From a virus (Duplodnaviria; Heunggongvirae; Uroviricota; Caudoviricetes), in IMG/VR virus record IMGVR_UViG_2671180884_000016, positions 1 through 11,914 of that record: DNA of 11,914 nucleotides. The stretch is one strand, 5' to 3'. This document shows, in pieces, positions 1-11,914 of the stretch. The notes below the pieces were generated by a model that did not search any database, had not been told where the DNA came from, and was given only the letters and a program-made list of their open reading frames with translations. Within the stretch, counting starts at the first letter, position 1; every line of letters starts with the position of its first letter. Both the position numbers and the translations under genes were made by a program.

Positions 1-270
1 AGAGATAAAGCCCTGCCGGTGCATCACTTTCCAGATGGCGCGAATTTTGGCGGTCACCGTACCCGGTTTTAAGGCCCGGTTAACCGGTTTCTGACGCACT
101 TTAAAACCGCGTTTTTTGAAAACATCCAGCACGCGGGATAACTCACCGGGTGACATATCCCGGCAGCTGGTTTTGCCGGTGGCTGCCAGTAGTACGAATG
201 TGTAGGTCTCATCATCCAGGGCAAGCTCGCGCTTTGCCACATGAATAGCGGATATCAGTTTCCCTCTCAT
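1..270 (-). CDS. gemA: GemA-like (Mu gp16 / DUF1018-type) protein, N-terminal 90 aa only; C-terminus lies beyond window start
   Basis: Reverse-complement translation of 1-270 gives MRGKLISAIHVAKRELALDDETYTFVLLAATGKTSCRDMSPGELSRVLDVFKKRGFKVRQKPVN..., with the I-x-x-IH-x-AK-x-x-L-x-LDD-x-TY motif recalled for Mu GemA-family proteins. ATG at 268-270 overlaps the upstream gene's TGA (ATGA). Confidence 0.6.
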   Translation of the reverse strand, partial: MRGKLISAIHVAKRELALDDETYTFVLLAATGKTSCRDMSPGELSRVLDVFKKRGFKVRQKPVNRALKPGTVTAKIRAIWKVMHRQGFIS

Positions 271-563
271 GCTGTATCAACACTCCTGCTGATATGATAG
301 ATATTACTTTCCCGATCGAGCTGAACCCGATACTCCGGAGGAATCACAAAAATATTAAAACCATCATCAGTTTTTATTCTTGAGTAGTATTCCCCCTTAT
401 GATATCTGGCAAGTGCATTAATCAGAGAAGTCGCCGCCAGCCCAATCAGGTATTTTTTATGAAAAATACTGATAACTTTCCGGCACAGCCATCGTGTAAT
501 GACGAATGCACCGAAAAACGATGTGATATATAAACACCAGAACAACTGCGAACTACTGTCCAT
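267..563 (-). CDS. hypothetical protein, 98 aa, N-terminal transmembrane helix
   Basis: ORF with strong SD (AAGGAG, 7 nt before ATG at 563). Hydrophobic segment LFWCLYITSFFGAFVITRWL. Stop overlaps the gemA-like start. Confidence 0.55.
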   Translation of the reverse strand: MDSSSQLFWCLYITSFFGAFVITRWLCRKVISIFHKKYLIGLAATSLINALARYHKGEYYSRIKTDDGFNIFVIPPEYRVQLDRESNIYHISRSVDTA

Positions 564-750
564 TATCTTTCTCCTTATTCAGTCTTCTGCGACATTCGGC
601 ACAGTCATCAGGGCTTTCAAATGTATCCGGCTCGCGATTATGAGCCAGATATAACCACCGCCTACATATACTGATATTATCGCCAGTTTTAAAAAAATGA
701 TGCTTCTTAGCCATCAGAGGGCGCGCCCATCCAGCGGGTAGACTATTCAT
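553..750 (-). CDS. hypothetical small protein, 65 aa, Cys-containing (C-x19-C-x2-C), possible zinc-binding
   Basis: ORF with SD GGAGGA 8 nt upstream of ATG at 750; overlaps neighbours by 8 and 11 nt, suggesting translational coupling. Confidence 0.45.
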   Translation of the reverse strand: MNSLPAGWARPLMAKKHHFFKTGDNISICRRWLYLAHNREPDTFESPDDCAECRRRLNKEKDNGQ

Positions 751-1117
751 TTGCTTTATCCTCCATACTGGACAAAATCATCTGTATTAATGTCGGGCGT
801 GGAGATATACGCATTTCATTAAGCGTCTGAAGGGCAGCAACGGCTGCCTGTTTATCGGTGCCTTTGGCAATTTCCGCAAGAGAATGCACAATCCATAACG
901 GACTTAACGCCACGACTGAATCCAGAATCATGTCATCCATAATAATTTCTGACACATCCCGCTTATCACATTCCTTATCCATAAAAGAAACGATTTTTTC
1001 CACATCTTCCGGTTTCATGCCTCCGGCGATAAGAAATTTGCGATACTCATAAGACGATCTTAATTCAATACTCATATTCATCTCCTGTAACTCTGACAAG
1101 GACGTGATTTTTCTCAT
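743..1117 (-). CDS. hypothetical protein, 124 aa
   Basis: ORF in the co-oriented early operon; ATG at 1115-1117 overlaps the stop of the upstream gene (ATGA). Confidence 0.5.
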   Translation of the reverse strand: MRKITSLSELQEMNMSIELRSSYEYRKFLIAGGMKPEDVEKIVSFMDKECDKRDVSEIIMDDMILDSVVALSPLWIVHSLAEIAKGTDKQAAVAALQTLNEMRISPRPTLIQMILSSMEDKANE

Positions 1118-1299
1118 TTATGTTTTCCAGTAATACGGATATATATGTCGATAAGAAGATTCATAATAAACAGGAAGAGCGACATCCTGATAAAGAACCA
1201 AATATCTGGCATCATGGACAGGTTTCCTGTAATCGCAAATATAAAACCAACCCCCAACACCGGAACGAAAATTGCGAAAAATACAAGTCTCTTTATCAT
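1114..1299 (-). CDS. small hydrophobic membrane protein, 61 aa, two predicted TM helices
   Basis: Sequence MIKRLVFFAIFVPVLGVGFIFAITG...WFFIRMSLFLFIMNLLIDIYI is dominated by two hydrophobic stretches; ATGA overlap with upstream gene at 1296-1299. Confidence 0.5.
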   Translation of the reverse strand: MIKRLVFFAIFVPVLGVGFIFAITGNLSMMPDIWFFIRMSLFLFIMNLLIDIYIRITGKHK

Positions 1300-1847
1300 G
1301 GCGTTAACTCCCGTAATACAGCGTCCTCGGCAGTCCGGCGATGGTGATAAATAAAATTCACCGTACTCTCGGATAATTCAAATTTCTCGCCTATTTCCCG
1401 GAAGGTAAGACGTCGTGGTGATTCAGCATCCCGTAATTCACGAATAAGATGAACATCATCGTCAGGTATACGGGTGAAGGGCAGCAATTCTCCGTATTTT
1501 TTCATGCTTACGCCAATATATCGCGCCCGATTGTGGACAGAATCCCGGTCTCGCCCCAGATATTCTCCTATTTGCTTACCGGTCATCGTTCTGGCATTTT
1601 TTCGGATAAATTTATCTTCATCATGTTTAAATCTTGGACGTTTGCATTTGAGCAACTCCGGGTAAGTACCGCGTAATAAAACAATCCGGTTATGTACACC
1701 CCAGAAACTTCTTTTTACCCTGACAGCAATATCCTTAACCGGGGTGGATGGATAAAGCGCAATCAGCAGCGCATCTTCTTCAGGTGTCCACGCACGGACA
1801 TGAGCAGGTGCCTGACCTTTTCGCCCCATGGGTTGTAAAATCATCAT
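1296..1847 (-). CDS. putative DNA-binding protein, 183 aa, with three helix-turn-helix-like segments
   Basis: SD AGGGGG 7 nt upstream of ATG at 1847. Segments WTPEEDALLIALY (Myb/SANT-like), TGKQIGEYLGRDRDSVHNRARYIG and LTFREIGEKFELSESTVNFIYHH (sigma-70 region 4 / LuxR-like) read as HTH motifs by eye. Confidence 0.55.
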   Translation of the reverse strand: MMILQPMGRKGQAPAHVRAWTPEEDALLIALYPSTPVKDIAVRVKRSFWGVHNRIVLLRGTYPELLKCKRPRFKHDEDKFIRKNARTMTGKQIGEYLGRDRDSVHNRARYIGVSMKKYGELLPFTRIPDDDVHLIRELRDAESPRRLTFREIGEKFELSESTVNFIYHHRRTAEDAVLRELTP

Positions 1848-1850
1848 ACA

Positions 1851-2366
1851 TCACCCCCTGACTCGCTTTTCAGCAGCATAAAACTCATCAGACAGAATTT
1901 CGGTCATTTTCTGATTTGCGGGTTTTACGCCGCACTCAAGGTAAATCACATCGTCAACGCAGAACCACTTCACAGGGCCAAACATGATTGCCGAGAAATC
2001 AATACCCAGCCAGAACAACAGTGCATCGGTTCTGGCATACGTGACGGGCGAATATTCACGCCACAGACTGTTAAGTTCGTCAGAGGCAACGCGCAGGGCT
2101 TTGGGAATACGTGATGTGCGCGGTGTGCAGCTCCAGCCATTCGACGCAGTCGGTTTTCGCCATAAGTCGCGATGAAAAGGATATTTGTCATCCATAAAGC
2201 GCAGCCCTTTAAAACAAAAGCCACTGATACCGGATACAAATACCGACCGGCACGCAACATTCAGCACGGCCTCAAGGCGTTTTGCCTCATCCTTAACTTT
2301 CTGGCAGTCCTGCTGATATTTTTGCCACGCGGCCAGCGCGGAAGGGTTTGATGTTTTAAAGAACAT
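1851..2366 (-). CDS. hypothetical protein, 171 aa
   Basis: ORF with SD GGAGGTG upstream of ATG at 2364-2366; TAATG stop/start overlap with upstream gene. Confidence 0.55.
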   Translation of the reverse strand: MFFKTSNPSALAAWQKYQQDCQKVKDEAKRLEAVLNVACRSVFVSGISGFCFKGLRFMDDKYPFHRDLWRKPTASNGWSCTPRTSRIPKALRVASDELNSLWREYSPVTYARTDALLFWLGIDFSAIMFGPVKWFCVDDVIYLECGVKPANQKMTEILSDEFYAAEKRVRG

Positions 2367-2899
2367 TACGCCACCTCCGCAGATATCCCGGCAGGCGCGG
2401 CCGTCCGGTCAACAATCAGGTAACGCAGAACGCGCGAGGTGATATTCCAGCCGCTTAAACCGCAGATAATGACACCCAGGCGTATGTCGATATACGCCAT
2501 CACAAACTGGGGCACGCCTTCTTTCATGGCCTGCTCATCAACTTCAGCCACCACATAAACGGTTTCACAGGTCAGAACGCCCTGAGCAAATTCCCACGCC
2601 ATTGACGGAATATCATGCCCCTCAATCCACGGCAGGGATTTTCTGAAGCTGCACCACTGAACATCATCAGCCGCACCTTCCTGGCTGCATTTGCGACGAA
2701 CCGGCTGCACCGGGCGGGGACGCGGAATATCATAAAAACCGTTACATTCCGTCAGCACCCCGGCATCGACCGCATCACGCAGAAAATAAACCATCGAGGA
2801 TGGCGGCATATTCATTTTTTCAGCCAGAATGCCGCAGGTCAGACGCCCGTAAATACTCAGCCAGTTTTTAACCCCTTCAAGCACTTTTGCATCAATCAT
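2366..2899 (-). CDS. hypothetical protein, 177 aa (possible N-terminal winged-helix-like region)
   Basis: ORF with SD GGAGGA 8 nt upstream of ATG at 2899; no family recognised from sequence alone. Confidence 0.55.
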   Translation of the reverse strand: MIDAKVLEGVKNWLSIYGRLTCGILAEKMNMPPSSMVYFLRDAVDAGVLTECNGFYDIPRPRPVQPVRRKCSQEGAADDVQWCSFRKSLPWIEGHDIPSMAWEFAQGVLTCETVYVVAEVDEQAMKEGVPQFVMAYIDIRLGVIICGLSGWNITSRVLRYLIVDRTAAPAGISAEVA

Positions 2900-2902
2900 G
2901 AA

Positions 2903-3445
2903 TTATTCCTCCGTCAGCGCCACATATTCAGAATGTTTAATCTCCTGGCATTCTTCAGGAATACCCCCTTTTATTTCCCTGCCATAAGCGCCTACTTTAA
3001 ACACCACGCACAGGGCATCACGGGAGAGCGACGGGGTCCACCAGGAGTCCATGTTAAACATGGAGGGGATTCTCATTACCCCCAGCTTTTCACAGAGCCA
3101 GACAAGGAAATCAGGACGCTTTCTTAACTCGCGTTCAGCGGCTTCAATCATTGCGGCAATCGCCGGTCCTTCAGGGCATGACTCATCAGGTCTGGCAATA
3201 AAGCACGGTCCGTCCCCGATAAAAGCCACATCATCGCGCTTACGCCAGCCCGCAGGCAGAGCACCAGAAAAATAAAACTCACTGATTACGTCCATGGCAA
3301 ACGGCTTTAAGCGCAATCCGGCAGCGCCTGTATTTTTCAGTAATGCCCGAAGAATACTGTTGCGTAGCGGTAAAACAGTCTGTTGATATTTGGTGAAATA
3401 TTTATTTGTCTGCACACGGTCTAATTTGAAATAAAAATATGCCAT
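2903..3445 (-). CDS. hypothetical protein, 180 aa
   Basis: ORF with SD AAGGA upstream of ATG at 3445; first gene downstream of gam in the operon. Confidence 0.55.
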   Translation of the reverse strand: MAYFYFKLDRVQTNKYFTKYQQTVLPLRNSILRALLKNTGAAGLRLKPFAMDVISEFYFSGALPAGWRKRDDVAFIGDGPCFIARPDESCPEGPAIAAMIEAAERELRKRPDFLVWLCEKLGVMRIPSMFNMDSWWTPSLSRDALCVVFKVGAYGREIKGGIPEECQEIKHSEYVALTEE

Positions 3446-3542
3446 ATATCCTGTTCCTTATTTTCAGTTTACAGGCGCAGGCAGTCCCCTGACGCGAGCG
3501 CCATACTTAAAACGATGTGATATTTAAAGATTTAATGCGGTG

Positions 3543-4073
3543 TTATTTATTCAGTCCGGCGTCCTGTTCAAAAGGCTCGACATAAAAACTTTCAGCGCCT
3601 TTATTCACCTTAATACCGGCAATGCCTTTCACTGCATCCGGCTCCGCCAGGACCGCTTCCTTGTTCACTTCCTCTTTCGTGCGGATGAATCGCTCAAGCC
3701 CCATACGGCGCAGCATTTCAATCACACCTTCCACATCACGGCTGACGCTGCATGATGGATTTCCCAGCCGCCATGACACTGTTCCGGTGGTCAGATTGGC
3801 TGTTTTGGTTTTGCCGCCGTTCGTCAGCTCATCGCGGTTGGTTTTGCACCAGTCCTGAATCCCCTTAAAAAGCACTTTGATTTCTTTTTTAAGGTTTTCA
3901 ATCTGCGGCGTATAACGGGCGGTGATTTCTGCCACTTCATCATTCATCGCCGTTTCCAGCCGCAGCGCCTCTCGCTGAATATCGCCCAGGGTACGGATAT
4001 CGCGGCTGACTTCTTCGCGGGTCTGCGGTGCAGCCTCGGCTGCGGCCTTTAATTTTGTAACACGTTTAGCCAT
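3543..4073 (-). CDS. gam: host-nuclease inhibitor protein Gam (Mu Gam / Ku-like DNA end-binding protein)
   Basis: 176 aa. Resembles the Mu Gam sequence as recalled: N-terminal MAK...LETAMNDEVAEI, central DELTNGGKTKTANLTTGTVSWR, C-terminal RFIRTKEEVNKEAVLAEPDAVKGIAGIKV...EPFEQ. Position in the early operon is appropriate. Confidence 0.8.
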   Translation of the reverse strand: MAKRVTKLKAAAEAAPQTREEVSRDIRTLGDIQREALRLETAMNDEVAEITARYTPQIENLKKEIKVLFKGIQDWCKTNRDELTNGGKTKTANLTTGTVSWRLGNPSCSVSRDVEGVIEMLRRMGLERFIRTKEEVNKEAVLAEPDAVKGIAGIKVNKGAESFYVEPFEQDAGLNK

Positions 4074-4084
4074 TTTGTTTTTCC

Positions 4085-4378
4085 TTATTGCAGTGTGCCT
4101 GATGCTTTATGCACGCGGTGGCGTTTAATGATGGCATCCGCCCCAAAAGCCTGTACAGATGCCTGAAATTCCGCTGAGAGAAACTGAATAATTTCAGGAC
4201 TGTGATACTGGAGAATACTTGCATAAACGTCACAGAGTGACGTCGGCCTGTTATTCGTATCACGTTCTGTTTTTACATCCACACCAATCTTTTCATGCAC
4301 TTCAACACAGTCATTGCCTGCCGGTTTTTCGTCATGCGAAACATGCTTAAATTCAAAAATAACGCGTACTTTGCTCAT
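4085..4378 (-). CDS. hypothetical small protein, about 97 aa; paralogue of the 4383-4655 gene (ORF track extends to 4405, internal start preferred)
   Basis: ATG at 4376-4378 is preceded by SD AGGGG and lies just after the upstream stop. N-terminus MSKVRVIFEFKHV matches MSKVVRIIFEYKEHV of the neighbour. Confidence 0.5.
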   Translation of the reverse strand: MSKVRVIFEFKHVSHDEKPAGNDCVEVHEKIGVDVKTERDTNNRPTSLCDVYASILQYHSPEIIQFLSAEFQASVQAFGADAIIKRHRVHKASGTLQ

Positions 4379-4382
4379 GGAA

Positions 4383-4655
4383 TTACCCCTGCTGATTAAA
4401 TTCATTACCTTTAATAACCCCGGAACGCATGCTCATATCTTTCATGAGCGCACTGGCTTTCATTGCCACAAGTTCAGCAAAGTCTCTGCTTTCCGCGAGC
4501 ATAACCACCCCAAAAATCATGGCGGGTCCATCACCTTTCTGCTTTATCCCGGTTGAACGTATGTCCAGACTTACCCCCATGCGCACTGTTCCATCAGCGT
4601 TTTTATGGATAACGTGCTCCTTGTATTCGAAAATAATGCGTACGACTTTACTCAT
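4383..4655 (-). CDS. hypothetical small protein, 90 aa; paralogue of the 4085-4378 gene
   Basis: ORF with SD-like GAGGACCAGAGG before ATG at 4655; ATGA overlap with upstream gene. Nucleotide similarity around both starts (aaaataaYgcgtac...ctcat). Confidence 0.5.
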   Translation of the reverse strand: MSKVVRIIFEYKEHVIHKNADGTVRMGVSLDIRSTGIKQKGDGPAMIFGVVMLAESRDFAELVAMKASALMKDMSMRSGVIKGNEFNQQG

Positions 4656-4933
4656 CCTCTGGTCCTCGTTCTGTTTGGATAACTGACCCGGCGTCTGACC
4701 TCACGGCAGAACCGAATCATGGCATTAAAGGCTTCTTCCTCCGTCACCGCTTCCGGTATCCCCGGAACCAGTAACTGCTCCTGTTCATCACGTCCATGAC
4801 GCGCCATAACCTCAATCACATGCCGTACCGTGGCAGGCTTTCCGGCAACTATCGGCAATGCACCTTCCGGCAGGACGTAACCAAACTCAATAAGACCACT
4901 CGACCACGCCCATGCAATGAGATTTTTTTTCAC
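4652..4933 (-). CDS. hypothetical protein, 93 aa, GTG start
   Basis: GTG at 4931-4933 is preceded by strong SD GGGAGGTG; no in-frame ATG nearby. Confidence 0.45.
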   Translation of the reverse strand: MKKNLIAWAWSSGLIEFGYVLPEGALPIVAGKPATVRHVIEVMARHGRDEQEQLLVPGIPEAVTEEEAFNAMIRFCREVRRRVSYPNRTRTRG

Positions 4934-4934
4934 C

Positions 4935-5189
4935 TCACACCTCCCAGTAAACCGTGCAGCCGCTGATGCGGGTGGCCTTCACACGGCGGCGCAGGCCGTT
5001 GGTCTGTATGGTGATTTCAATTTCACCGGTTCCCTGCACGTTGCCTACCGGCGGCGTGGTTTTCAGTGCAAAACGTTGCGGATAGCGCTTACTGCGTTCC
5101 AGTACCGCACCGGCAAGTTCGGTCAGACGGCGCGCGCTGTTCAGGGAGTCGAATAAATTCATTTTGTTACCGCAGGATTGCATATTCAT
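4935..5189 (-). CDS. hypothetical protein, about 84 aa (ORF track 4935-5201; internal ATG at 5189 preferred)
   Basis: The first ATG of the ORF itself forms SD GAGGTG for the ATG at 5187-5189. Confidence 0.4.
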   Translation of the reverse strand: MNMQSCGNKMNLFDSLNSARRLTELAGAVLERSKRYPQRFALKTTPPVGNVQGTGEIEITIQTNGLRRRVKATRISGCTVYWEV

Positions 5190-5201
5190 ATAACACCTCA
5201 T

Positions 5202-5423
5202 TTAGCTGACTTGTTTCGCACCAACAGAACGGCATATTCCGCTGTAAACGTCTGTCGCACCTTCGCGATCAAGTCCGGCAGATATCACCATTCGTGTGCG
5301 GTCATTAAATTCAAAAAGTAAATCGCCACATTCTTTATTTTCGGCCAGTGAAATCACCTTCACGTTATCGAAATTAACCAGGTAAAAGCGTCCGTAAATA
5401 TCAGGAATATTAAATACCGCCAT
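5202..5423 (-). CDS. hypothetical small protein, about 73 aa, immediately downstream of B (position of kil in Mu)
   Basis: ATG at 5421-5423 preceded by SD AGGTG; the ORF track's start at 5429 is a GTG two codons upstream. Follows B stop (TGA 5426-5428) after 2 nt. Confidence 0.45.
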   Translation of the reverse strand: MAVFNIPDIYGRFYLVNFDNVKVISLAENKECGDLLFEFNDRTRMVISAGLDREGATDVYSGICRSVGAKQVS

Positions 5424-5425
5424 AA

Positions 5426-6358
5426 TCACACCTGTGAGAGTAATTCAGGGTTGGTATAAACCTCTTTAAAGGCCGCATTAATATGTTTTTCTGTCAGCGC
5501 CGCGCCTTCACCGCTGGCGGTGAGCCACGCCTGGTTAAGCGTATGTGTCAGAACGCGTAACGCTCCCGGCTTTTCAGCGATAGCCTGCATGACGGCCAGC
5601 TCGGCCTCACCACTGATCCCCCACGCCCTGGCAATGGCCAGCACATCCGCCTTTTTGGCCTTGCGAAGTTGTTTTGTACGGGCAAGACGGCTGAACAGGC
5701 GCGATAAATCATCAAAGGCGCGGCGTCCACCTTTAAACAATCCGCGCGGGTTACCAATAAGCACCATCCCGATCCCCGTGGCGTCCTGAATTGCCCGGAG
5801 TTGCTCCAGACCGTCAATACCAAGATGATCCGCCTCATCCACAATCACCAGTCCACGCGTTCCCATCAGGCGACGGCGGATGGCGCGGGATAATGCCCCT
5901 TTGTTCGCGCGGGTGTAATCAATCCCCAGCGCATCGGCCAGCTCCAGCAGACACTCCGTGACGCTGGAGTGCGCGGGTGACAGGGTGATCATCCAGGTGT
6001 TTGGTTGCTCCTGGCAGTAATTACGGGCAGTGGCCGTTTTACCCACACCCGGTACGCCCACAATAACGTTAATACAGCCCATCAGACGAACCGCCTGAAA
6101 CAGTGCGCGCAGCTCCTGGACTGTCTGCGTTTCCACAAACTGCGGCGGTTCCGGCAGTGCGCTTTGTTTATTCCAGTTCTCATACCAGGAACGCAGGGAA
6201 GCAGCCACAGCAGCGTTATCGCCTTTATATTTTCCCTTACGGAAAGCCGATAATGTGCCGTCGGAAATTCCCGCCTCTCTGGCGATGGCATACTGCGTCA
6301 GTACGCCGCCATCAATAAGTTCATCAATGGTCTTGATTACATCGTTAATATCAGTCAT
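5426..6358 (-). CDS. B: Mu B-like DNA transposition protein (AAA+ ATPase target-DNA activator)
   Basis: 310 aa. N-terminal HTH-like region, Walker A GVPGVGKT, Walker B-like LVIVDEADHL; directly downstream of the transposase as in Mu. SD GAGAGG upstream. Confidence 0.85.
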   Translation of the reverse strand: MTDINDVIKTIDELIDGGVLTQYAIAREAGISDGTLSAFRKGKYKGDNAAVAASLRSWYENWNKQSALPEPPQFVETQTVQELRALFQAVRLMGCINVIVGVPGVGKTATARNYCQEQPNTWMITLSPAHSSVTECLLELADALGIDYTRANKGALSRAIRRRLMGTRGLVIVDEADHLGIDGLEQLRAIQDATGIGMVLIGNPRGLFKGGRRAFDDLSRLFSRLARTKQLRKAKKADVLAIARAWGISGEAELAVMQAIAEKPGALRVLTHTLNQAWLTASGEGAALTEKHINAAFKEVYTNPELLSQV

Positions 6359-6396
6359 ATTATTAACCTCTCATTTGATACCTTGTTTAATCAAAT

Positions 6397-6430
6397 AACC
6401 TGAGTCGCCGCTCGGGTTATTTTTTTATTT
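6397..6430 (+). terminator. hairpin plus T-tract in the A-B intergenic spacer, best formed on the plus (antisense) strand
   Basis: aacctgag / ctcgggtt stem (8 bp, one G-U) with 6-nt loop, followed by atttttttattt on the plus strand. Confidence 0.3.
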
Positions 6431-8538
6431 CAGGCCAGCGGGTCATTTTCTTTTAATTTCGCTTCCAGCAACTGCAATCCCCGCTGGAAATTACGCTCGT
6501 ATTCTTCATCAGGTTCATCGTCAGCGACCGGTTGCTGAACGGTCACCGTATTACCCACAGGGCGGTATATGTTTTCCAGCCAGGGCTCCTGCGGCTTGTG
6601 CTCCAGCACGTTGACAACCTCATCCTCGGCATCACGGATTTTTTCCTCTGCGCGTTTACGCATGCCTTTAAGGCGTTGCTGCTGTTTGTAGTATTCCGCG
6701 CTAACCGGGAAGGCTTCGCGTTTATTACCGTCCCATACCGCCTCGCAAATCACGCTGCCATCCAGGCGACGTACGGTAATTCGTTCGGCATCATGAATGT
6801 CATAGCTGATAAGCACCTTACGACCATGCTCGTCACGCAGCTCGGGCGCGTAGTAAATATTATTCAGCCAGCGTATTTCACAGCGTCTTACAGGGCGTTC
6901 CACCATCGGCCGGAACATATCCCGCAGCTCAACATCGGACAGCCATTCAATTTCCGTGTCCTCTTCCGCCAGGCGTTTTTTTCTGAACTCCGCCGGGCTG
7001 TAATGCTTGCCGTTCGGCTTCACCGGTAATTCATCGTGCGGCCGGTTGTTGTACCACTCAACACCGTCACGAATGGCATCAATCAGTTCAGACCAGGACG
7101 GTAAATCACGCATCGCTGACTGCTGCCGGGCGTTCAGCCGTTTGCCCTGTTGCAGGGCAGTAAATGCCGAGCGTAAATCGCGGTTGGTTTTGCGTAACGT
7201 CTCGCGATCTGCACCTTTCCCGAAATAGGTGCGGTATTTACGGGCTATGCGCATCGGTAATGTGCGGTTAAGCCGTTCGATAATGCCTCGTCCCTGCGGA
7301 TTACCGGCAATCCCGGTCGGGTGATTAATCCCCAGTCGCGGCAGTATCCCCACAACCTCCTTATCCAGGATGTCGGCGGTTTCCCCGGAGCCGTTATCCG
7401 AGTAATACAGAAACGGTTTGCCGTGATGGCGAATGCCGTGCTGTATGGCACCGGCTACGGCGAAAACATTTTCAGCCAGGTCAAGGCTCCAGCCCACCAC
7501 AAAGCGCGTGCCACCGTCGATAACAAAGGTCACTTCCGGTGCAAATGGCCGACCGTGAACCGGGTGTGCGCATTTCAGCTTCATGCCGTGACCGTCACCA
7601 ATCCAGACATAATTCACCGGCATTTTTGACCAGTCGCGGCGCGTGAATCCCTCAAGCTGGCGGTATTCACTGCCGGTCACCCGGCCTTTTTGTTTCACCA
7701 CTTCCGGCAGTTTCTTCATTGCGCGGCGAATGGTGTCATAAGACGGCATGATATCGAGCATATAAGGCTCATCAGCGTGCCGGTGCTGCCATTCAGCGAC
7801 AAAATCCTCGTAAGCCTCGGTCATTGGTCGGCCGTTTGACTGGCGATACTGCGCCAGAAATTCGGGCAGCCAGTTAATATCTTCGGCTTTTATTTCCTGG
7901 CGCTTACCCGGTGCCAGTAAAAGCAGGCGTTCAGCGGCGTTCTGCGCCTTGTTAAAGGCCGCAATCCAGCGTTTCAGCGTTATTTCACTCAACGCACGGC
8001 TGTTTCCCTTTTTGGCGTTCGCCGTCTCAACCATTGCCACAATGCGCTCGTCCAGTTGCGAACGTGCCAGGTTGTCAACGATAAACCGGATAGCTTTCGC
8101 GCAGCTGAAACCGGGTTGTTGCGCGACTTTCATCACTTCGCTGACGATCGCGATTCGTGCATCAGCCACCTGGCGCTGGTTTTCAGTCAGGGCATTGAGG
8201 CGTTCGACCATCAGTTGTGGTGATCCGCGATATGCCTCCACCGCATCAACCACGTCAGATGAGCGTCTGGCCTTTGTCACCACCGGAGCCGGTGATTCAT
8301 CGGCTTTTTGCGTCATCAGTTGCAGGGCATAGCGTTCGCGTACTGCCTGCTGAACAGTTAAAGGCAAAGCTCCTATTTCACACTCTAAAACTTTCCCTTT
8401 TACCCCTGGTTTTAGCCGCGTTTTCCACGCTTCCCTCTTTGCTTTTTTGTGCAGACCTGCCAAAGAACTAGGTAGGTCACTGAATGAAATCAATTCAGTC
8501 ATTGCAACCCACATATTTCCTCCGCGCACGTCGTTCAT
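6430..8538 (-). CDS. A: Mu A-like DDE transposase (N-terminal repressor-like DNA-binding domain, central rve-type catalytic core, C-terminal domain)
   Basis: 702 aa; size and position (after ner, before B) match MuA. N-terminal ...SDLPSSLAGLHKKAKREAWKTR... parallels the adjacent repressor. Start may be the internal ATG at 8514 (MWVAMTEL); either start overlaps the ner 3' end. Confidence 0.9.
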   Translation of the reverse strand: MNDVRGGNMWVAMTELISFSDLPSSLAGLHKKAKREAWKTRLKPGVKGKVLECEIGALPLTVQQAVRERYALQLMTQKADESPAPVVTKARRSSDVVDAVEAYRGSPQLMVERLNALTENQRQVADARIAIVSEVMKVAQQPGFSCAKAIRFIVDNLARSQLDERIVAMVETANAKKGNSRALSEITLKRWIAAFNKAQNAAERLLLLAPGKRQEIKAEDINWLPEFLAQYRQSNGRPMTEAYEDFVAEWQHRHADEPYMLDIMPSYDTIRRAMKKLPEVVKQKGRVTGSEYRQLEGFTRRDWSKMPVNYVWIGDGHGMKLKCAHPVHGRPFAPEVTFVIDGGTRFVVGWSLDLAENVFAVAGAIQHGIRHHGKPFLYYSDNGSGETADILDKEVVGILPRLGINHPTGIAGNPQGRGIIERLNRTLPMRIARKYRTYFGKGADRETLRKTNRDLRSAFTALQQGKRLNARQQSAMRDLPSWSELIDAIRDGVEWYNNRPHDELPVKPNGKHYSPAEFRKKRLAEEDTEIEWLSDVELRDMFRPMVERPVRRCEIRWLNNIYYAPELRDEHGRKVLISYDIHDAERITVRRLDGSVICEAVWDGNKREAFPVSAEYYKQQQRLKGMRKRAEEKIRDAEDEVVNVLEHKPQEPWLENIYRPVGNTVTVQQPVADDEPDEEYERNFQRGLQLLEAKLKENDPLA

Positions 8539-8740
8539 ATCTAGTAGGCCAAATAACCTGTGGCTCTACACCTATAGCCCTAGCAATTATCTTTTCACCT
8601 TTAGGGTAGGGAACTCGCAAAGCATTACCCAAAGTCCTAGGCTGCAAATTATTTTCCCTTGATAAACGTGACAAATTGGTATCGCGTTTTTCTAAGGCTG
8701 CCTTTATATCGGCGGAAGACCAATCTTCAATAAGACTCAC
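8495..8740 (-). CDS. ner: Ner-like DNA-binding transcriptional regulator (Mu Ner / Nlp family)
   Basis: 81 aa, (M)SLIEDWSSADIKAALEKRDTNLSRLSRENNLQPRTLGNALRVPYPKGEKIIARAIGVEPQVIWPTRY matches the conserved Ner/Nlp pattern (DWH.ADI...L...PKGE.IIA.A.G..P..IWPSRY). GTG start with SD AGGGGG 5 nt upstream. Confidence 0.8.
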   Translation of the reverse strand: MSLIEDWSSADIKAALEKRDTNLSRLSRENNLQPRTLGNALRVPYPKGEKIIARAIGVEPQVIWPTRYERRARRKYVGCND

Positions 8741-8824
8741 AATGGCCCCCTGTGTACTTTCTATGGCAAACTTTATTACTCATGTGTGCTACTCTATTGA
8801 GTTACTCACTAGTGTATGTTTGAT

Positions 8825-8853
8825 ATGTTAGATATTAACTTAGTAAATATCAA
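8825..8853 (-). promoter_or_regulatory. candidate early promoter for ner-A-B (minus strand: -35 TTGATA, 17-bp spacer, -10 TAACAT)
   Basis: Hexamers read by eye on the minus strand; about 85 nt upstream of the ner GTG. Confidence 0.25.
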
Positions 8854-8860
8854 CTGGTTA
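8848..8860. promoter_or_regulatory. IHF-like binding site within the operator region
   Basis: tatcaactggtta fits the IHF consensus WATCAANNNNTTR; Mu has an IHF site in its operator region. Confidence 0.35.
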
Positions 8861-8957
8861 ATTTCAAATTTTTAAATTTGCTCTGTATCTATTTGTTTTT
8901 TATTGAGTTATTTTTGAAATAAACCACATAAAAGATATGAACAAAAGTTAATATCAA

Positions 8958-9476
8958 ATGGAGTTTGATATGATCCTTGACCAAGAATGGATCCTTGCCA
9001 GTGACTTGTTGGGGGTTGGAGGTCTTCCTTCATCTCTGGCTGGGCTTCATAAACGAGCAAAAAATGAAGGATGGGAAAAACGTTCGGTAACTACACCTGG
9101 TATCAGAGGGAGAGCATTTGCCTACCGTTTAAGCGACTTACCTGCACATGTTGTTTCCATCATTACAGGTAGTGCAGAAATAAAACACCAGCCCCCTCAA
9201 AAGAACGGTGGCAATAGCGAGTTGCTCGAACTCATCGACACTTTGAGCCAAGAAGAGCAAGAATTAGTTATTTACACCTTGAGAAGGAAAGGGGTAGAAA
9301 AATTGCTGGAATTCTGCAATCAAGAGAATCAAGAGTTGATCGCTTTAACAGGTATTCGACGCCTGGCAGCATTGAGCCTTAATAATTTATCAGATCAAAA
9401 GGTTAGAGAGATTTTCGAGGGAGATGAAACCAAGGATCATCATTTCAATTTAACCCATAAAGAAGCCAAAGCGTAA
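8958..9476 (+). CDS. c: Mu c-type repressor (lysogeny maintenance); likely true start at ATG 8970
   Basis: 172 aa, divergent from ner. N-terminal ...GGLPSSLAGLHKRAKNEGWEKR... matches the transposase N-terminus, the known MuA/Mu-repressor relationship. GGAG SD 6 nt before the ATG at 8970. Confidence 0.75.
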   Translation: MEFDMILDQEWILASDLLGVGGLPSSLAGLHKRAKNEGWEKRSVTTPGIRGRAFAYRLSDLPAHVVSIITGSAEIKHQPPQKNGGNSELLELIDTLSQEEQELVIYTLRRKGVEKLLEFCNQENQELIALTGIRRLAALSLNNLSDQKVREIFEGDETKDHHFNLTHKEAKA

Positions 9477-9599
9477 CCCCATGAAGCCCAGGCCATGCAC
9501 TTAGCGAGCACTTTCAACTTGATTTGTGACCAGATCGATATTGATATAAACTTTTTAGCATAAAAGACATTTTAAGTACTTTTAAAAACGTCCATAAGC

Positions 9600-9775
9600 A
9601 GTATGTGCAGTATCAAATTTGTTGCCGATACCTTAATTTTATACCGGATTTTATTTAATCAGTATCAAAACTAAACAACCTCCAGAATCATCGATCACCT
9701 GTTTTATTTCAGTATCTTACAGGTGATTTCACCTCCTTTCACTAAAACCCTTGTCGGTATCAAATGATTTACCTG
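9600..9775. repeat. prophage left-end region with four GTATC(A/T)-containing repeats at about 50-bp spacing (candidate transposase end-binding sites, attL-like)
   Basis: cagtatcaaatttgttgccgatacc (about 9608), cagtatcaaaactaaacaacc (about 9660), cagtatcttacaggtgatttcacc (about 9710), cggtatcaaatgatttacc (about 9755); AT-rich, non-coding, between the c stop and the junction. Confidence 0.5.
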
Positions 9776-10022
9776 GTTACACTCTGCACTGCCGGGCGAT
9801 ATCCTGCTGTGCTGCTTCGGCGCATCGGTGGCTAATCATGCCGCCATTTACTGCGGCAACGGTGAACTGCTTCACCATCTGCCTGAACAACTGAGTAAAC
9901 GGGAGAGGTATTCCGAAAAATGGCAACGACGAACGCATTCTGTCTGGCGTCACCGCCACTGGCACGCATCTGCCTTCACGGGGATTTACAACGATTTGGC
10001 CGCCGCTTCAGCCTGTATGTGA
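9768..10022 (+). pseudogene. K: 5'-truncated remnant of lambdoid tail assembly protein K (C-terminal about 84 codons only)
   Basis: In-frame translation ...LHSALPGDILLCCFGASVANHAAIYCGNGELLHHLPEQLSKRERYSEKWQRRTHSVWRHRHWHASAFTGIYNDLAAAS matches the lambda K C-terminus as recalled. An in-frame stop at 9765-9767 lies immediately upstream, with no ATG and no N-terminal K coding sequence. Confidence 0.7.
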
Positions 10023-10600
10023 ACACGGCGGCGGAAGCCATCCGCGCCCTGTCGCTGCAGGTGCCGGGATTCCGCCGTCAGATGAACGAAGGCTGGTACC
10101 AGATACGCATTGCCGGTGAGGATACGGCACCGGAGGCGGTGTATGCCCGCCTTCACGAACCACTGGGTGAGGGAACGGTTATCCATATTGTGCCGCGACT
10201 GGCCGGAGCCGGAAAGGGCGGACTACAGATTGTGCTGGGGGCAGCTGCCATTGTGGGGTCTTTCTTCACGGCCGGAGCATCAATGGCGTTATGGGGTTCA
10301 GCCCTGGCAGCCGGTGGTTTTTCTGCCACCACGATGCTGTTTTCACTGGGTGCCAGCATGATACTGGGCGGTGTGGCCCAGATGCTGGCCCCGAAGGCAA
10401 AAACACCGGATTACCGCGCAACGGATAACGGCAGACAGAACACGTATTTTTCCTCACTGGACAACATGATTGCCCAGGGCAACCCGATGCCGGTGCCCTA
10501 CGGTGAAATGCTGGTTGGTTCACGACGTATCTCTCAGGACATCAGCACCCGTGATGAAGGCGGAGACGGAAAGGTGGTGGTTATTGGTCGACAGGGATAA
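9920..10600 (+). CDS. I: lambdoid tail assembly protein I
   Basis: 226 aa, MATTNAFCLASPPLARICLHGDLQRFGRR...GKQNTYFSSLDNM..., closely parallels lambda gpI; overlaps the K 3' end as in lambda-like tail modules. Confidence 0.9.
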   Translation: MATTNAFCLASPPLARICLHGDLQRFGRRFSLYVNTAAEAIRALSLQVPGFRRQMNEGWYQIRIAGEDTAPEAVYARLHEPLGEGTVIHIVPRLAGAGKGGLQIVLGAAAIVGSFFTAGASMALWGSALAAGGFSATTMLFSLGASMILGGVAQMLAPKAKTPDYRATDNGRQNTYFSSLDNMIAQGNPMPVPYGEMLVGSRRISQDISTRDEGGDGKVVVIGRQG

Positions 10601-10603
10601 AAC

Positions 10604-10639
10604 ATAAAAAAATCCCGCAGTGATCGCGGAGCTGCGGGG
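10604..10639 (-). terminator. rho-independent terminator-like hairpin, minus-strand orientation, just downstream of the I stop
   Basis: Stem tcccgcag / ctgcggga (8 bp) with 11-nt loop; on the minus strand the stem is followed by TTTTTTTAT (plus-strand A-run 10606-10612). Confidence 0.4.
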
Positions 10640-10812
10640 ACAGACAAATGAAGATTAATGTTAAGGAGTTGTTTTTGTTACTCGGGCAAAAAAACACTAA
10701 CGCAGCGAAATTATAAGCGCCACAGTCAGTGTGTGAAAATGTGAAGATATTCAGAATTTTTATGCCATTACCGGTTTTAACCAACAGGATTATCGGTGGG
10801 CATGAAAGAAAA

Positions 10813-10845
10813 CCCCGGTATCTGCTGATACCGGGGTTTCTGTTT
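10813..10845. terminator. bidirectional rho-independent terminator-like hairpin in the I-J spacer
   Basis: Perfect 10-bp stem ccccggtatc / gataccgggg with 4-nt loop, flanked by gaaagaaaa upstream and tttctgttt downstream (T-rich on both strands). Confidence 0.5.
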
Positions 10846-10942
10846 AGCATGGCAGAAATGTGTTTCATGCTTTTCGGGCGAAGGATATCCGACTTCTGTA
10901 CGGAATGGCAAGTGGCGGTTAATTTATTCAGGGGAAGGCTGT

Positions 10943-11914
10943 ATGGGAAAAGGTGGCGGTAAGGCACACACGCCTCGTGAGGCGAAGGATAATCTCAAAT
11001 CCACGCAGATGATGAGCGTGATTGATGCGATTGGTGAGGGACCCATTGAAGGTCCGGTGAAAGGCCTGCAGAGTATTCTGGTGAACAAAACCCCGCTGAC
11101 GGACACGGACGGTAATCCCGTGATACACGGTGTGACCGCGGTCTGGCGCGCCGGGGAGCAGGAGCAGACACCACCGGAAGGCTTTGAGTCCTCCGGAGCT
11201 GAAACTGTACTGGGTGTGGAAGTGACGAAGGCAAAACCGGTGACACGCACCATTACGTCAGCGAACATTGACCGCCTGCGGGTGACCTTCGGGGTGCAGT
11301 CACTGGTGGAGACCACGTCAAAGGGTGACCGTAATCCGTCCTCTGTCCGTCTGCTGATTCAGTTACAGCGTAACGGTAACTGGGTGACAGAAAAGGATGT
11401 CACCATTAACGGCAAGACCACCTCACAGTTCCTGGCCTCGGTGATTCTGGATAATCTGCCTCCCCGCCCCTTTAACATCCGGATGGTCAGGGAGACGGCG
11501 GACAGCACCACGGACCAGCTGCAGAACAGAACGCTGTGGTCGTCATACACCGAAATCATCGATGTGAAACAGTGCTACCCGAACACGGCCATTGTGGGGA
11601 TGCAGGTGGATGCGGAGCAGTTTGGTGGTCAGCAGATGACGGTGAACTACCATATCCGCGGTCGCATCATCCAGGTGCCGTCAAACTATGACCCGGAAAA
11701 ACGCACGTACAGTGGTATCTGGGACGGCAGTCTGAAACCGGCATACAGCAACAACCCGGCCTGGTGCCTGTGGGACATGCTGACTCACCCGCGCTACGGG
11801 ATGGGAAAACGCCTGGGGGCGGCGGATGTGGACAAGTGGGCGCTGTATGCCATCGGGCAGTACTGCGACCAGACGGTCCCGGATGGATTCGGGGGCACAG
11901 AGCCGCGGATGACC
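10943..11914 (+). CDS. J: lambdoid host specificity / central tail fibre protein J, N-terminal 324 aa; continues beyond window end
   Basis: Translation MGKGGGKAHTPREAKDNLKSTQMMSVIDAIGEGPIEGPVKGLQSILVNKTPL...PPRPFNIRM...LWSSYTEIIDVKQCYPNTAIVG...SNNPAWCLWDMLTHPRYGMGKRLGAADVDKWALY... is near-collinear with lambda gpJ; SD GGGGAAGG upstream; open to the window edge. Confidence 0.95.
   Translation, partial: MGKGGGKAHTPREAKDNLKSTQMMSVIDAIGEGPIEGPVKGLQSILVNKTPLTDTDGNPVIHGVTAVWRAGEQEQTPPEGFESSGAETVLGVEVTKAKPVTRTITSANIDRLRVTFGVQSLVETTSKGDRNPSSVRLLIQLQRNGNWVTEKDVTINGKTTSQFLASVILDNLPPRPFNIRMVRETADSTTDQLQNRTLWSSYTEIIDVKQCYPNTAIVGMQVDAEQFGGQQMTVNYHIRGRIIQVPSNYDPEKRTYSGIWDGSLKPAYSNNPAWCLWDMLTHPRYGMGKRLGAADVDKWALYAIGQYCDQTVPDGFGGTEPRMT

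Follow-up and report, generated by a model that had tools for sequence, protein, structure and literature searches.

The window, by which we mean the whole 11,914-nucleotide stretch analysed here (IMG/VR record IMGVR_UViG_2671180884_000016, positions 1 to 11,914), begins with an Sp18-type Mu-like prophage, of which positions 1-9781 form the left part (c-ner-A-B), and continues with tail genes of a lambda-like prophage. The early region of the Mu-like element (1..5425, minus strand, including small early ORFs) comprises homologues of Mu gp12 (1851-2366, minus strand; blastp 54%) and Mu gp11 (2366-2899, minus strand; blastp 67%), gam (3543-4073, minus strand; Pfam Phage_Mu_Gam, E=1.5e-41; blastp 57% to Mu Gam), and a kil-like gene (4935-5201, minus strand). 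On the same strand lie the genes of a MuB-like AAA+ target-capture ATPase of 310 aa (5426..6358; Pfam Phage-MuB_C, E=2.5e-25, and AAA_22; 48% to Mu B), a MuA-type transposase of 694 aa (6430..8514; Pfam Mu-transpos_C, E=1.5e-17, and HTH_Tnp_Mu_1) whose ORF is open back to 8538, and a ner-like early repressor of 81 aa (8495..8740; Pfam HTH_35, E=6.7e-27; 53% to Mu Ner). All early ORFs are intact and have the sizes found in relatives, so the visible part of the phage looks functional.

A c-type lysogeny repressor of 172 aa is encoded on the plus strand (8958..9476; Pfam HTH_Tnp_Mu_1, E=1.6e-6; 35% identical to the N-terminal domain of Mu c over 46 aa) and is transcribed toward the left end of the phage. 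Between c and ner lies an AT-rich divergent control region (8741..8957; 31% GC over 8701-9000), which from its position would contain operators and promoters. A MuA-type transposase and a MuB-type ATPase beside a divergent c/ner pair identify a Mu-like prophage, and the Pfam domains and gene order bear out the first-pass annotation of this DNA, which had read the left side as an AT-rich Mu-like end followed by c, ner, A, and B. Positions 1-9781 are 97.6-99.1% identical in nucleotide sequence to five independently inserted copies (L006, L008-L011). The identical c protein occurs in 2059 blocks of the assembly collection, each of the ten places shown being a separate chromosomal site; the exact 694-aa transposase was found on 6 contigs, and the 4 places shown lie elsewhere, none of them beside K-I-J. 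An exact-protein look-up returned no record of the 702-aa version of the transposase. The transposase is 93% identical to that of the Mu-like phage annotated inside the Stx2c phage LC727881.

Beyond the c stop codon lies the left end, or attL (9477..9781, 305 bp), bounded by the terminus that is common to independent copies. The first-pass annotation had placed the c stop about 295 bp from the junction and likened the geometry to that of Mu; the measured distance is 305 bp and that of phage Mu is 338 bp. On the minus strand of this end, TTTGATACYG occurs three times (9755-9764, 9660-9669, and 9608-9617) and once more in degenerate form near 9711-9720; a 9-bp inverted repeat is present at 9694-9702 and 9719-9727. 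TTTGATACYG is likely the motif bound by the transposase; the window holds 7 matches with at most one mismatch against 1.27 expected, and none of 200 shuffles reached 7. The GATAC cores of the left end stand at 21, 66, 116, and 168 from the terminus, and those of the right ends of three relatives (F8492, SW070917, and JNE082796) at 21, 43, and 78. The first site thus has the identical register (position 21) at both ends, the left end being read in the window and the right end in the three relatives only, which supports the assignment of the terminus.

To the right of the phage, the sequence changes in both composition and content, from 36-38% GC in the last stretch before the junction (9301-9750) to approximately 56-60% GC in the reading frame on the K side. 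Aligned against an uninterrupted K-I-J locus, as the first-pass annotation had proposed, positions 9782-11914 are 99.95% identical to the K(3')-I-gap-J sequence of Escherichia coli NCTC9112 and SW070917, in both of which K is intact (744 bp, 247 codons) and lies between L and I. The window retains the last 241 nt of K (9782..10022, plus strand), from the third base of codon 168 through the stop codon (79 codons); the break comes after nucleotide 503 of the 744 and splits codon 168. The remnant is recognizable as K by its homology to lambda K (81.8% identity over 77 aligned residues of the C-terminus) and by its position directly upstream of, and overlapping, I. A complete K ORF, with a start codon and both domains, is absent: full-length K has a Prok-JAB domain (residues 3-105) and an NlpC/P60 domain (114-224), and the remnant matches positions 51-105 of the Pfam NLPC_P60 profile only. 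With the break in codon 168 of 247, the remnant lacks the JAB domain and the front of NlpC/P60 and is, as far as its sequence tells, a dead fragment. An exact-protein look-up found no record of the 64-aa K remnant protein. The missing part of K is larger than the approximately 115 codons estimated in the first-pass annotation and amounts to approximately 167 codons (nucleotides 1-503, or 1-507 with the duplication discussed below); the smaller figure probably goes back to the annotated lambda gene of 199 codons, whose start is an internal Met.

Downstream, tail assembly gene I is intact (10019..10600, plus strand; 193 aa from GTG 10019; Pfam Lambda_tail_I; 66% to lambda I), and the 5' part of J, the tail-tip and host-recognition gene, runs off the window (10943..11914, plus strand; Pfam FNIII-A_GpJ, E=2.5e-41; 81% identical to lambda J residues 1-324). 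The identical I protein occurs in 176 blocks of the assembly collection and is flanked by K and J at each of the 10 places shown; among the 24 longest contigs that carry this I allele, a Mu-like phage is present in SW070917 only. The gap between I and J (10601-10942) is 342 bp long, with 42-45% GC, where that of lambda is about 60 bp, and the same gap is found in NCTC9112 and SW070917 without an annotated gene. Its minus strand bears a near-consensus promoter (TTCACA-16-TATAAT at 10737..10710) and, downstream of it, a hairpin with a T-run (10630..10614), a pair of signals that could specify a small RNA of approximately 90 nt; a perfect 13-bp hairpin also lies at about 10811-10840. Rfam gave no match in the whole window at the gathering threshold and no credible match in the I-J gap at E<=1.

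Between tail genes M and L, relatives of this lambdoid prophage have a full-length ompC-like porin gene (429-1592 in L002 and 5553-6716 in L005, NZ_CM129862.1, and also among L025-L034, of which L031, with the same I allele, is without it). The interval between M and L is an unusual place for a porin cargo gene.

The point at which the two prophages meet could be fixed to the base. In a base-by-base comparison, homology to K is lost between 9781 (A) and 9782 (C), and the phage terminates with ...CCTGGTTACA-3' at 9781. Ten other genomes that encode an identical c protein match the window up to 9781 and not a base beyond, each with a different flank, and in IMG/VR the same terminus is present in 14 contigs with readable flanks, which add 13 further distinct flanks. 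The terminus is also the same in E. coli O157:H7 F8492, where the phage is inserted in ypdA, in SW070917, in LC727881, and in Sp18 of strain Sakai. More than 20 independently inserted copies thereby lose flank homology at 9781, and this shared end of homology makes 9781 the true left terminus and the junction something other than a chance boundary. A fixed terminus at many unrelated sites is what characterizes an Sp18-type transposable prophage, and the flank in the window is the exact continuation of K from nucleotide 504, followed by I and J.

These positions also refine how the K frame is to be read. The first-pass annotation had the K-homologous frame beginning at about 9768-9780, with no start codon and an in-frame stop at 9765-9767. 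The stop and the missing start hold, as the frame is open from 9768 to the TGA at 10020-10022 with no start codon before GTG 9828; the boundary does not, since the junction is at 9781/9782. The in-frame TGA at 9765-9767 is inside the phage end, and K-derived sequence starts at 9782. That a Mu-like phage sits within the tail module of a lambda-like prophage was rightly recognized at first pass, K being broken in the middle of its ORF at the left end of the phage. At the level of sequence, the comparisons confirm the insertion of an Sp18-type Mu-like E. coli prophage in K of a resident lambda-like prophage.

Complete relatives indicate what should be expected at the end of the phage that lies outside the window. 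All four that were compared have a 4-bp target duplication: GTCG in SW070917, as compared with the uninterrupted L-K sequence of NCTC9112; GATG in Mu_JNE082796, annotated as a 4-bp repeat_region in GenBank LC727881; TAAA in Sp18; and TCAG in F8492, the only one in which a fifth matching base is possible. The duplications are located at 7560-7575 and 47420-47435 in L005, 3674-3677 and 43646-43649 in L020, about 471 in L023, about 10725 in L024, and 6820-6830 and 46100-46112 in L004. The 5-bp direct repeat anticipated in the first-pass annotation is thus replaced by a repeat of 4 bp, and, from the duplications in the relatives, the expected repeat in the window is CTCT, whose predicted first copy occupies 9782..9785. 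The right terminus in the relatives reads ...GCGCTATA-3' (...CTATA-3') and ends in TA rather than CA.

The explanation that we consider highly probable as a whole is that an Sp18-type phage inserted into codon 168 of K in a resident lambdoid prophage. The phage would have integrated by strand transfer catalyzed by its DDE transposase and would now reside there as a prophage. In the proposed sequence of events, the TTTGATACYG sites, of which the outermost has its core at position 21 from either terminus, would have been bound by the transposase, which would then have transferred the left 3' end (...ACA) and the right 3' end (...ATA) to target positions staggered by 4 bp. The 5' part of K (approximately 167 codons) and a second CTCT would then lie approximately 39-40 kb leftward, adjoining TATAGCGCGG. 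Under simple insertion, the second junction is expected to read ...CCCCTGTCCTCT of K followed directly by TATAGCGCGG, also written ...GGGTGCCCCTGTCCTCT followed by TATAGCGCGGCG..., with the right phage end starting TATAGCGCGGCG. Searches of the GTDB representative genomes, IMG/VR, and the JGI metagenomes gave no match to this predicted right junction, queried as ...CCCCTGTCCTCT(N0-2)TATAGCGCGG, and none to the observed left junction, and neither the 5426 complete E. coli genomes nor the phage and plasmid sets had a place that covered at least 80% of a query across the junction. Since neither junction occurs in any collection searched, it is by analogy with the many complete parallels that we infer simple insertion rather than a Mu-mediated deletion or inversion.

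Such parallels are fairly common. Of the 5426 complete E. coli genomes, 233 contain left ends of Sp18-like phages, at 284 places in all. When 60 of these left ends were sampled at even spacing, 29 touched an annotated gene, and approximately 7 of the 29 genes, as counted from the table, belong to prophages (HK97-gp10, small terminase, portal, tape measure, and DUF1367 three times); the tape-measure gene of 2015C-3108 and the portal gene of War, both in complete genomes, are annotated as truncated at the phage end. A copy with an identical transposase adjoins the plasmid genes ParB, PsiB, and PsiA (L019, GCA_036352775.1, JAZEXF010000045.1), and the phage thus also lands in plasmids.

Two parallels are particularly close to the window. 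In SW070917 (NZ_CM129862.1), the same type of lambdoid prophage is interrupted 555 bp upstream of the window site, in the order 5' part of L, right end of the phage, 39.9 kb, left end of the phage, and the rest of L with K, the insertion points being 7567/7568 and 47428/47429 and the orientation that of the window. The phage in SW070917 differs in lineage and immunity type, and there K is intact and L is without its last codons. The second parallel, LC727881, is a 92.9-kb Stx2c phage (Stx2c_JNE082796) with an annotated Mu-like phage, Mu_JNE082796, inside it: an Sp18-like phage in a lambdoid morphogenesis gene, with the same termini as in the window. The target in LC727881 is in the head/connector region and both junctions are known, whereas that of the window is K and one junction is visible. 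In closed CC119 STEC genomes, mobile elements harbour 6 of 10 Sp18-like phages, and several Stx phages carry Sp18-like insertions (Nakamura et al. 2023, PMC10132054). Given these published cases and the GenBank annotation, the phenomenon was already known; the site in K, which was not seen in the other copies compared, is a new instance of it.

The occurrence of two phage lineages 555 bp apart in the same prophage type raises the question of whether Sp18-like phages land non-randomly, with a preference for lambdoid prophages already in the host and a local hot spot between L and K in this lineage. The approximately one quarter of gene-touching left ends that hit prophage genes, and the 6 of 10 published copies in mobile elements, are compatible with such a preference. 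Given the base rates, a second insertion within approximately 1 kb would be unlikely under random insertion, with an estimated probability of roughly below 1%; the observation is post hoc, and the double insertion in L-K may reflect either a hot spot or coincidence. We regard the hot spot with its accompanying preference as an improbable reading. If it were true, insertion would be a recurrent means for a temperate phage to disable a competitor.

The same neighbourhood of sites bears on the possibility that the junction was made by an intramolecular Mu-mediated event, that is, an adjacent deletion or inversion produced by replicative transposition. The phage would first have been located elsewhere, for example, as in SW070917, in the 3' end of L; a later event would have joined its left end to codon 168 of K, with the 5' half of K deleted or displaced and the other phage end left without a matching duplication. 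Mu transposition classically yields adjacent deletions that leave the Mu end intact, and with a related phage in L of the same prophage type, deletion of exactly the 555-bp interval would give the junction in the window. The phage of SW070917 nevertheless belongs to a different lineage, with 94.9% identity in the early region (353 mismatches) and an unrelated c/ner segment, and stable lysogens normally come from simple insertion. Common descent of the two insertions was accordingly judged unlikely from the 5% divergence and the unrelated immunity regions, and a Mu-mediated origin of the junction is itself unlikely.

An origin of the junction in faulty assembly, or in a minority of cells that carried transpositionally replicating phage, is very unlikely; either would mean that the window does not show the genome's stable arrangement. 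Replicating Mu-type phages do generate many phage-host junctions in a culture, but the break in the window falls exactly at the phage terminus, with no repeat shared at the break and more than 2.1 kb of uninterrupted prophage sequence beyond it, and identical architectures are present in finished genomes. The idea of a natural hybrid phage that combines a Mu-type transposition module with lambda-type tail genes, for which the existence of Mu-like siphoviruses may be counted, was rejected as having a negligible chance of being correct, given that K is cut in the middle of a domain and has no start codon, that the Mu-like sequence ends at its canonical terminus with the tail genes outside the c end and not within the element, and that complete relatives have their own myovirus-type sheath, tube, and baseplate genes.

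Insertion of the Sp18-type phage into K would have consequences for the resident prophage. In lambda, assembly of the tail tip depends on K as well as on I, L, and J, and a lambdoid genome enlarged by approximately 40 kb cannot be packaged whole. With K split and approximately 40 kb inserted, lambda genetics would have the resident prophage disabled, able neither to build a tail tip of its own nor to be packaged as a unit, unless it is complemented by another lambdoid prophage of the host. The Mu-like phage itself may still be active. Since c is transcribed toward the phage left end, it reads outward through that end into K'-I-J, and a simple pattern scan found no terminator on the c strand; low-level read-through from c into I and J is conceivable. 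The locus provides a base-resolved example of one temperate phage disrupting another and has implications for annotation: the 64-codon ORF at 9828-10022 should be treated as a K remnant, the phage boundary should be placed at 9781, and the other end should be searched for a 4-bp, not a 5-bp, repeat.

Among known systems, phage Mu is the obvious point of reference, and the label "Mu-like" given at first pass is apt in that Mu-type genes occur in Mu order, although the element is Sp18-like and its transposase is only 21-32% identical to MuA. Phage Mu and the window have in common the c-ner-A-B-kil-gam order, a left end of approximately 300 bp, and left ends with one terminal and two internal copies of the transposase site, and both Mu and Sp18-like phages insert near-randomly. 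The spacings of L1, L2, and L3 in Mu and its layout of L1...L2-L3 at one end and R1-R2-R3 at the other are both resembled, by sequence, at the ends of the window phage and its relatives. Phage Mu makes a 5-bp duplication and has CA-3' at both ends. The end sequences of Mu are unrelated to those of the window, neither a 5-bp duplication nor CA-3' at both termini was found in the four complete relatives, and the window gave no nucleotide match to the first 9 kb of Mu at E<=1e-3. An identification as phage Mu itself (Muvirus mu) was rejected on these grounds and on the divergence of its proteins (A 21-32%, B 48%, Gam 57%, Ner 53%, and c 35% over 46 aa).

The Sp18 group, with 95-99% identity to the window in the early region and the same gene order, is the far closer match. 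The window shares 97.0% identity over 7.2 kb with Mu_JNE082796 and, in a whole-element comparison, 96.8% over 8.5 kb with the F8492 prophage, which is 39.3 kb long and reaches 98.5% over its left 3.5 kb; with Sp18 of E. coli O157:H7 Sakai, the terminal 88 bp are 96.6% identical. Sp18-like phages have been reported at variable insertion sites (PMC7430833), and Sp18 was predicted to be intact, with its DNA packaged (PMC2669165). The segment containing the c/ner immunity genes (approximately 8353-9693) matches the type found in F8492 and shares no nucleotide homology with that of Sp18, SW070917, or JNE082796, while the transposase gene and the terminal 88 bp beside it are 95-97% identical to those relatives, with homology resuming at 9694, the first base of the 9-bp inverted repeat. 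With c and ner lacking homology between flanks that match, the Sp18 group is mosaic in its immunity region and swaps immunity cassettes, and the phage in K is a member with a cassette of the F8492 type.
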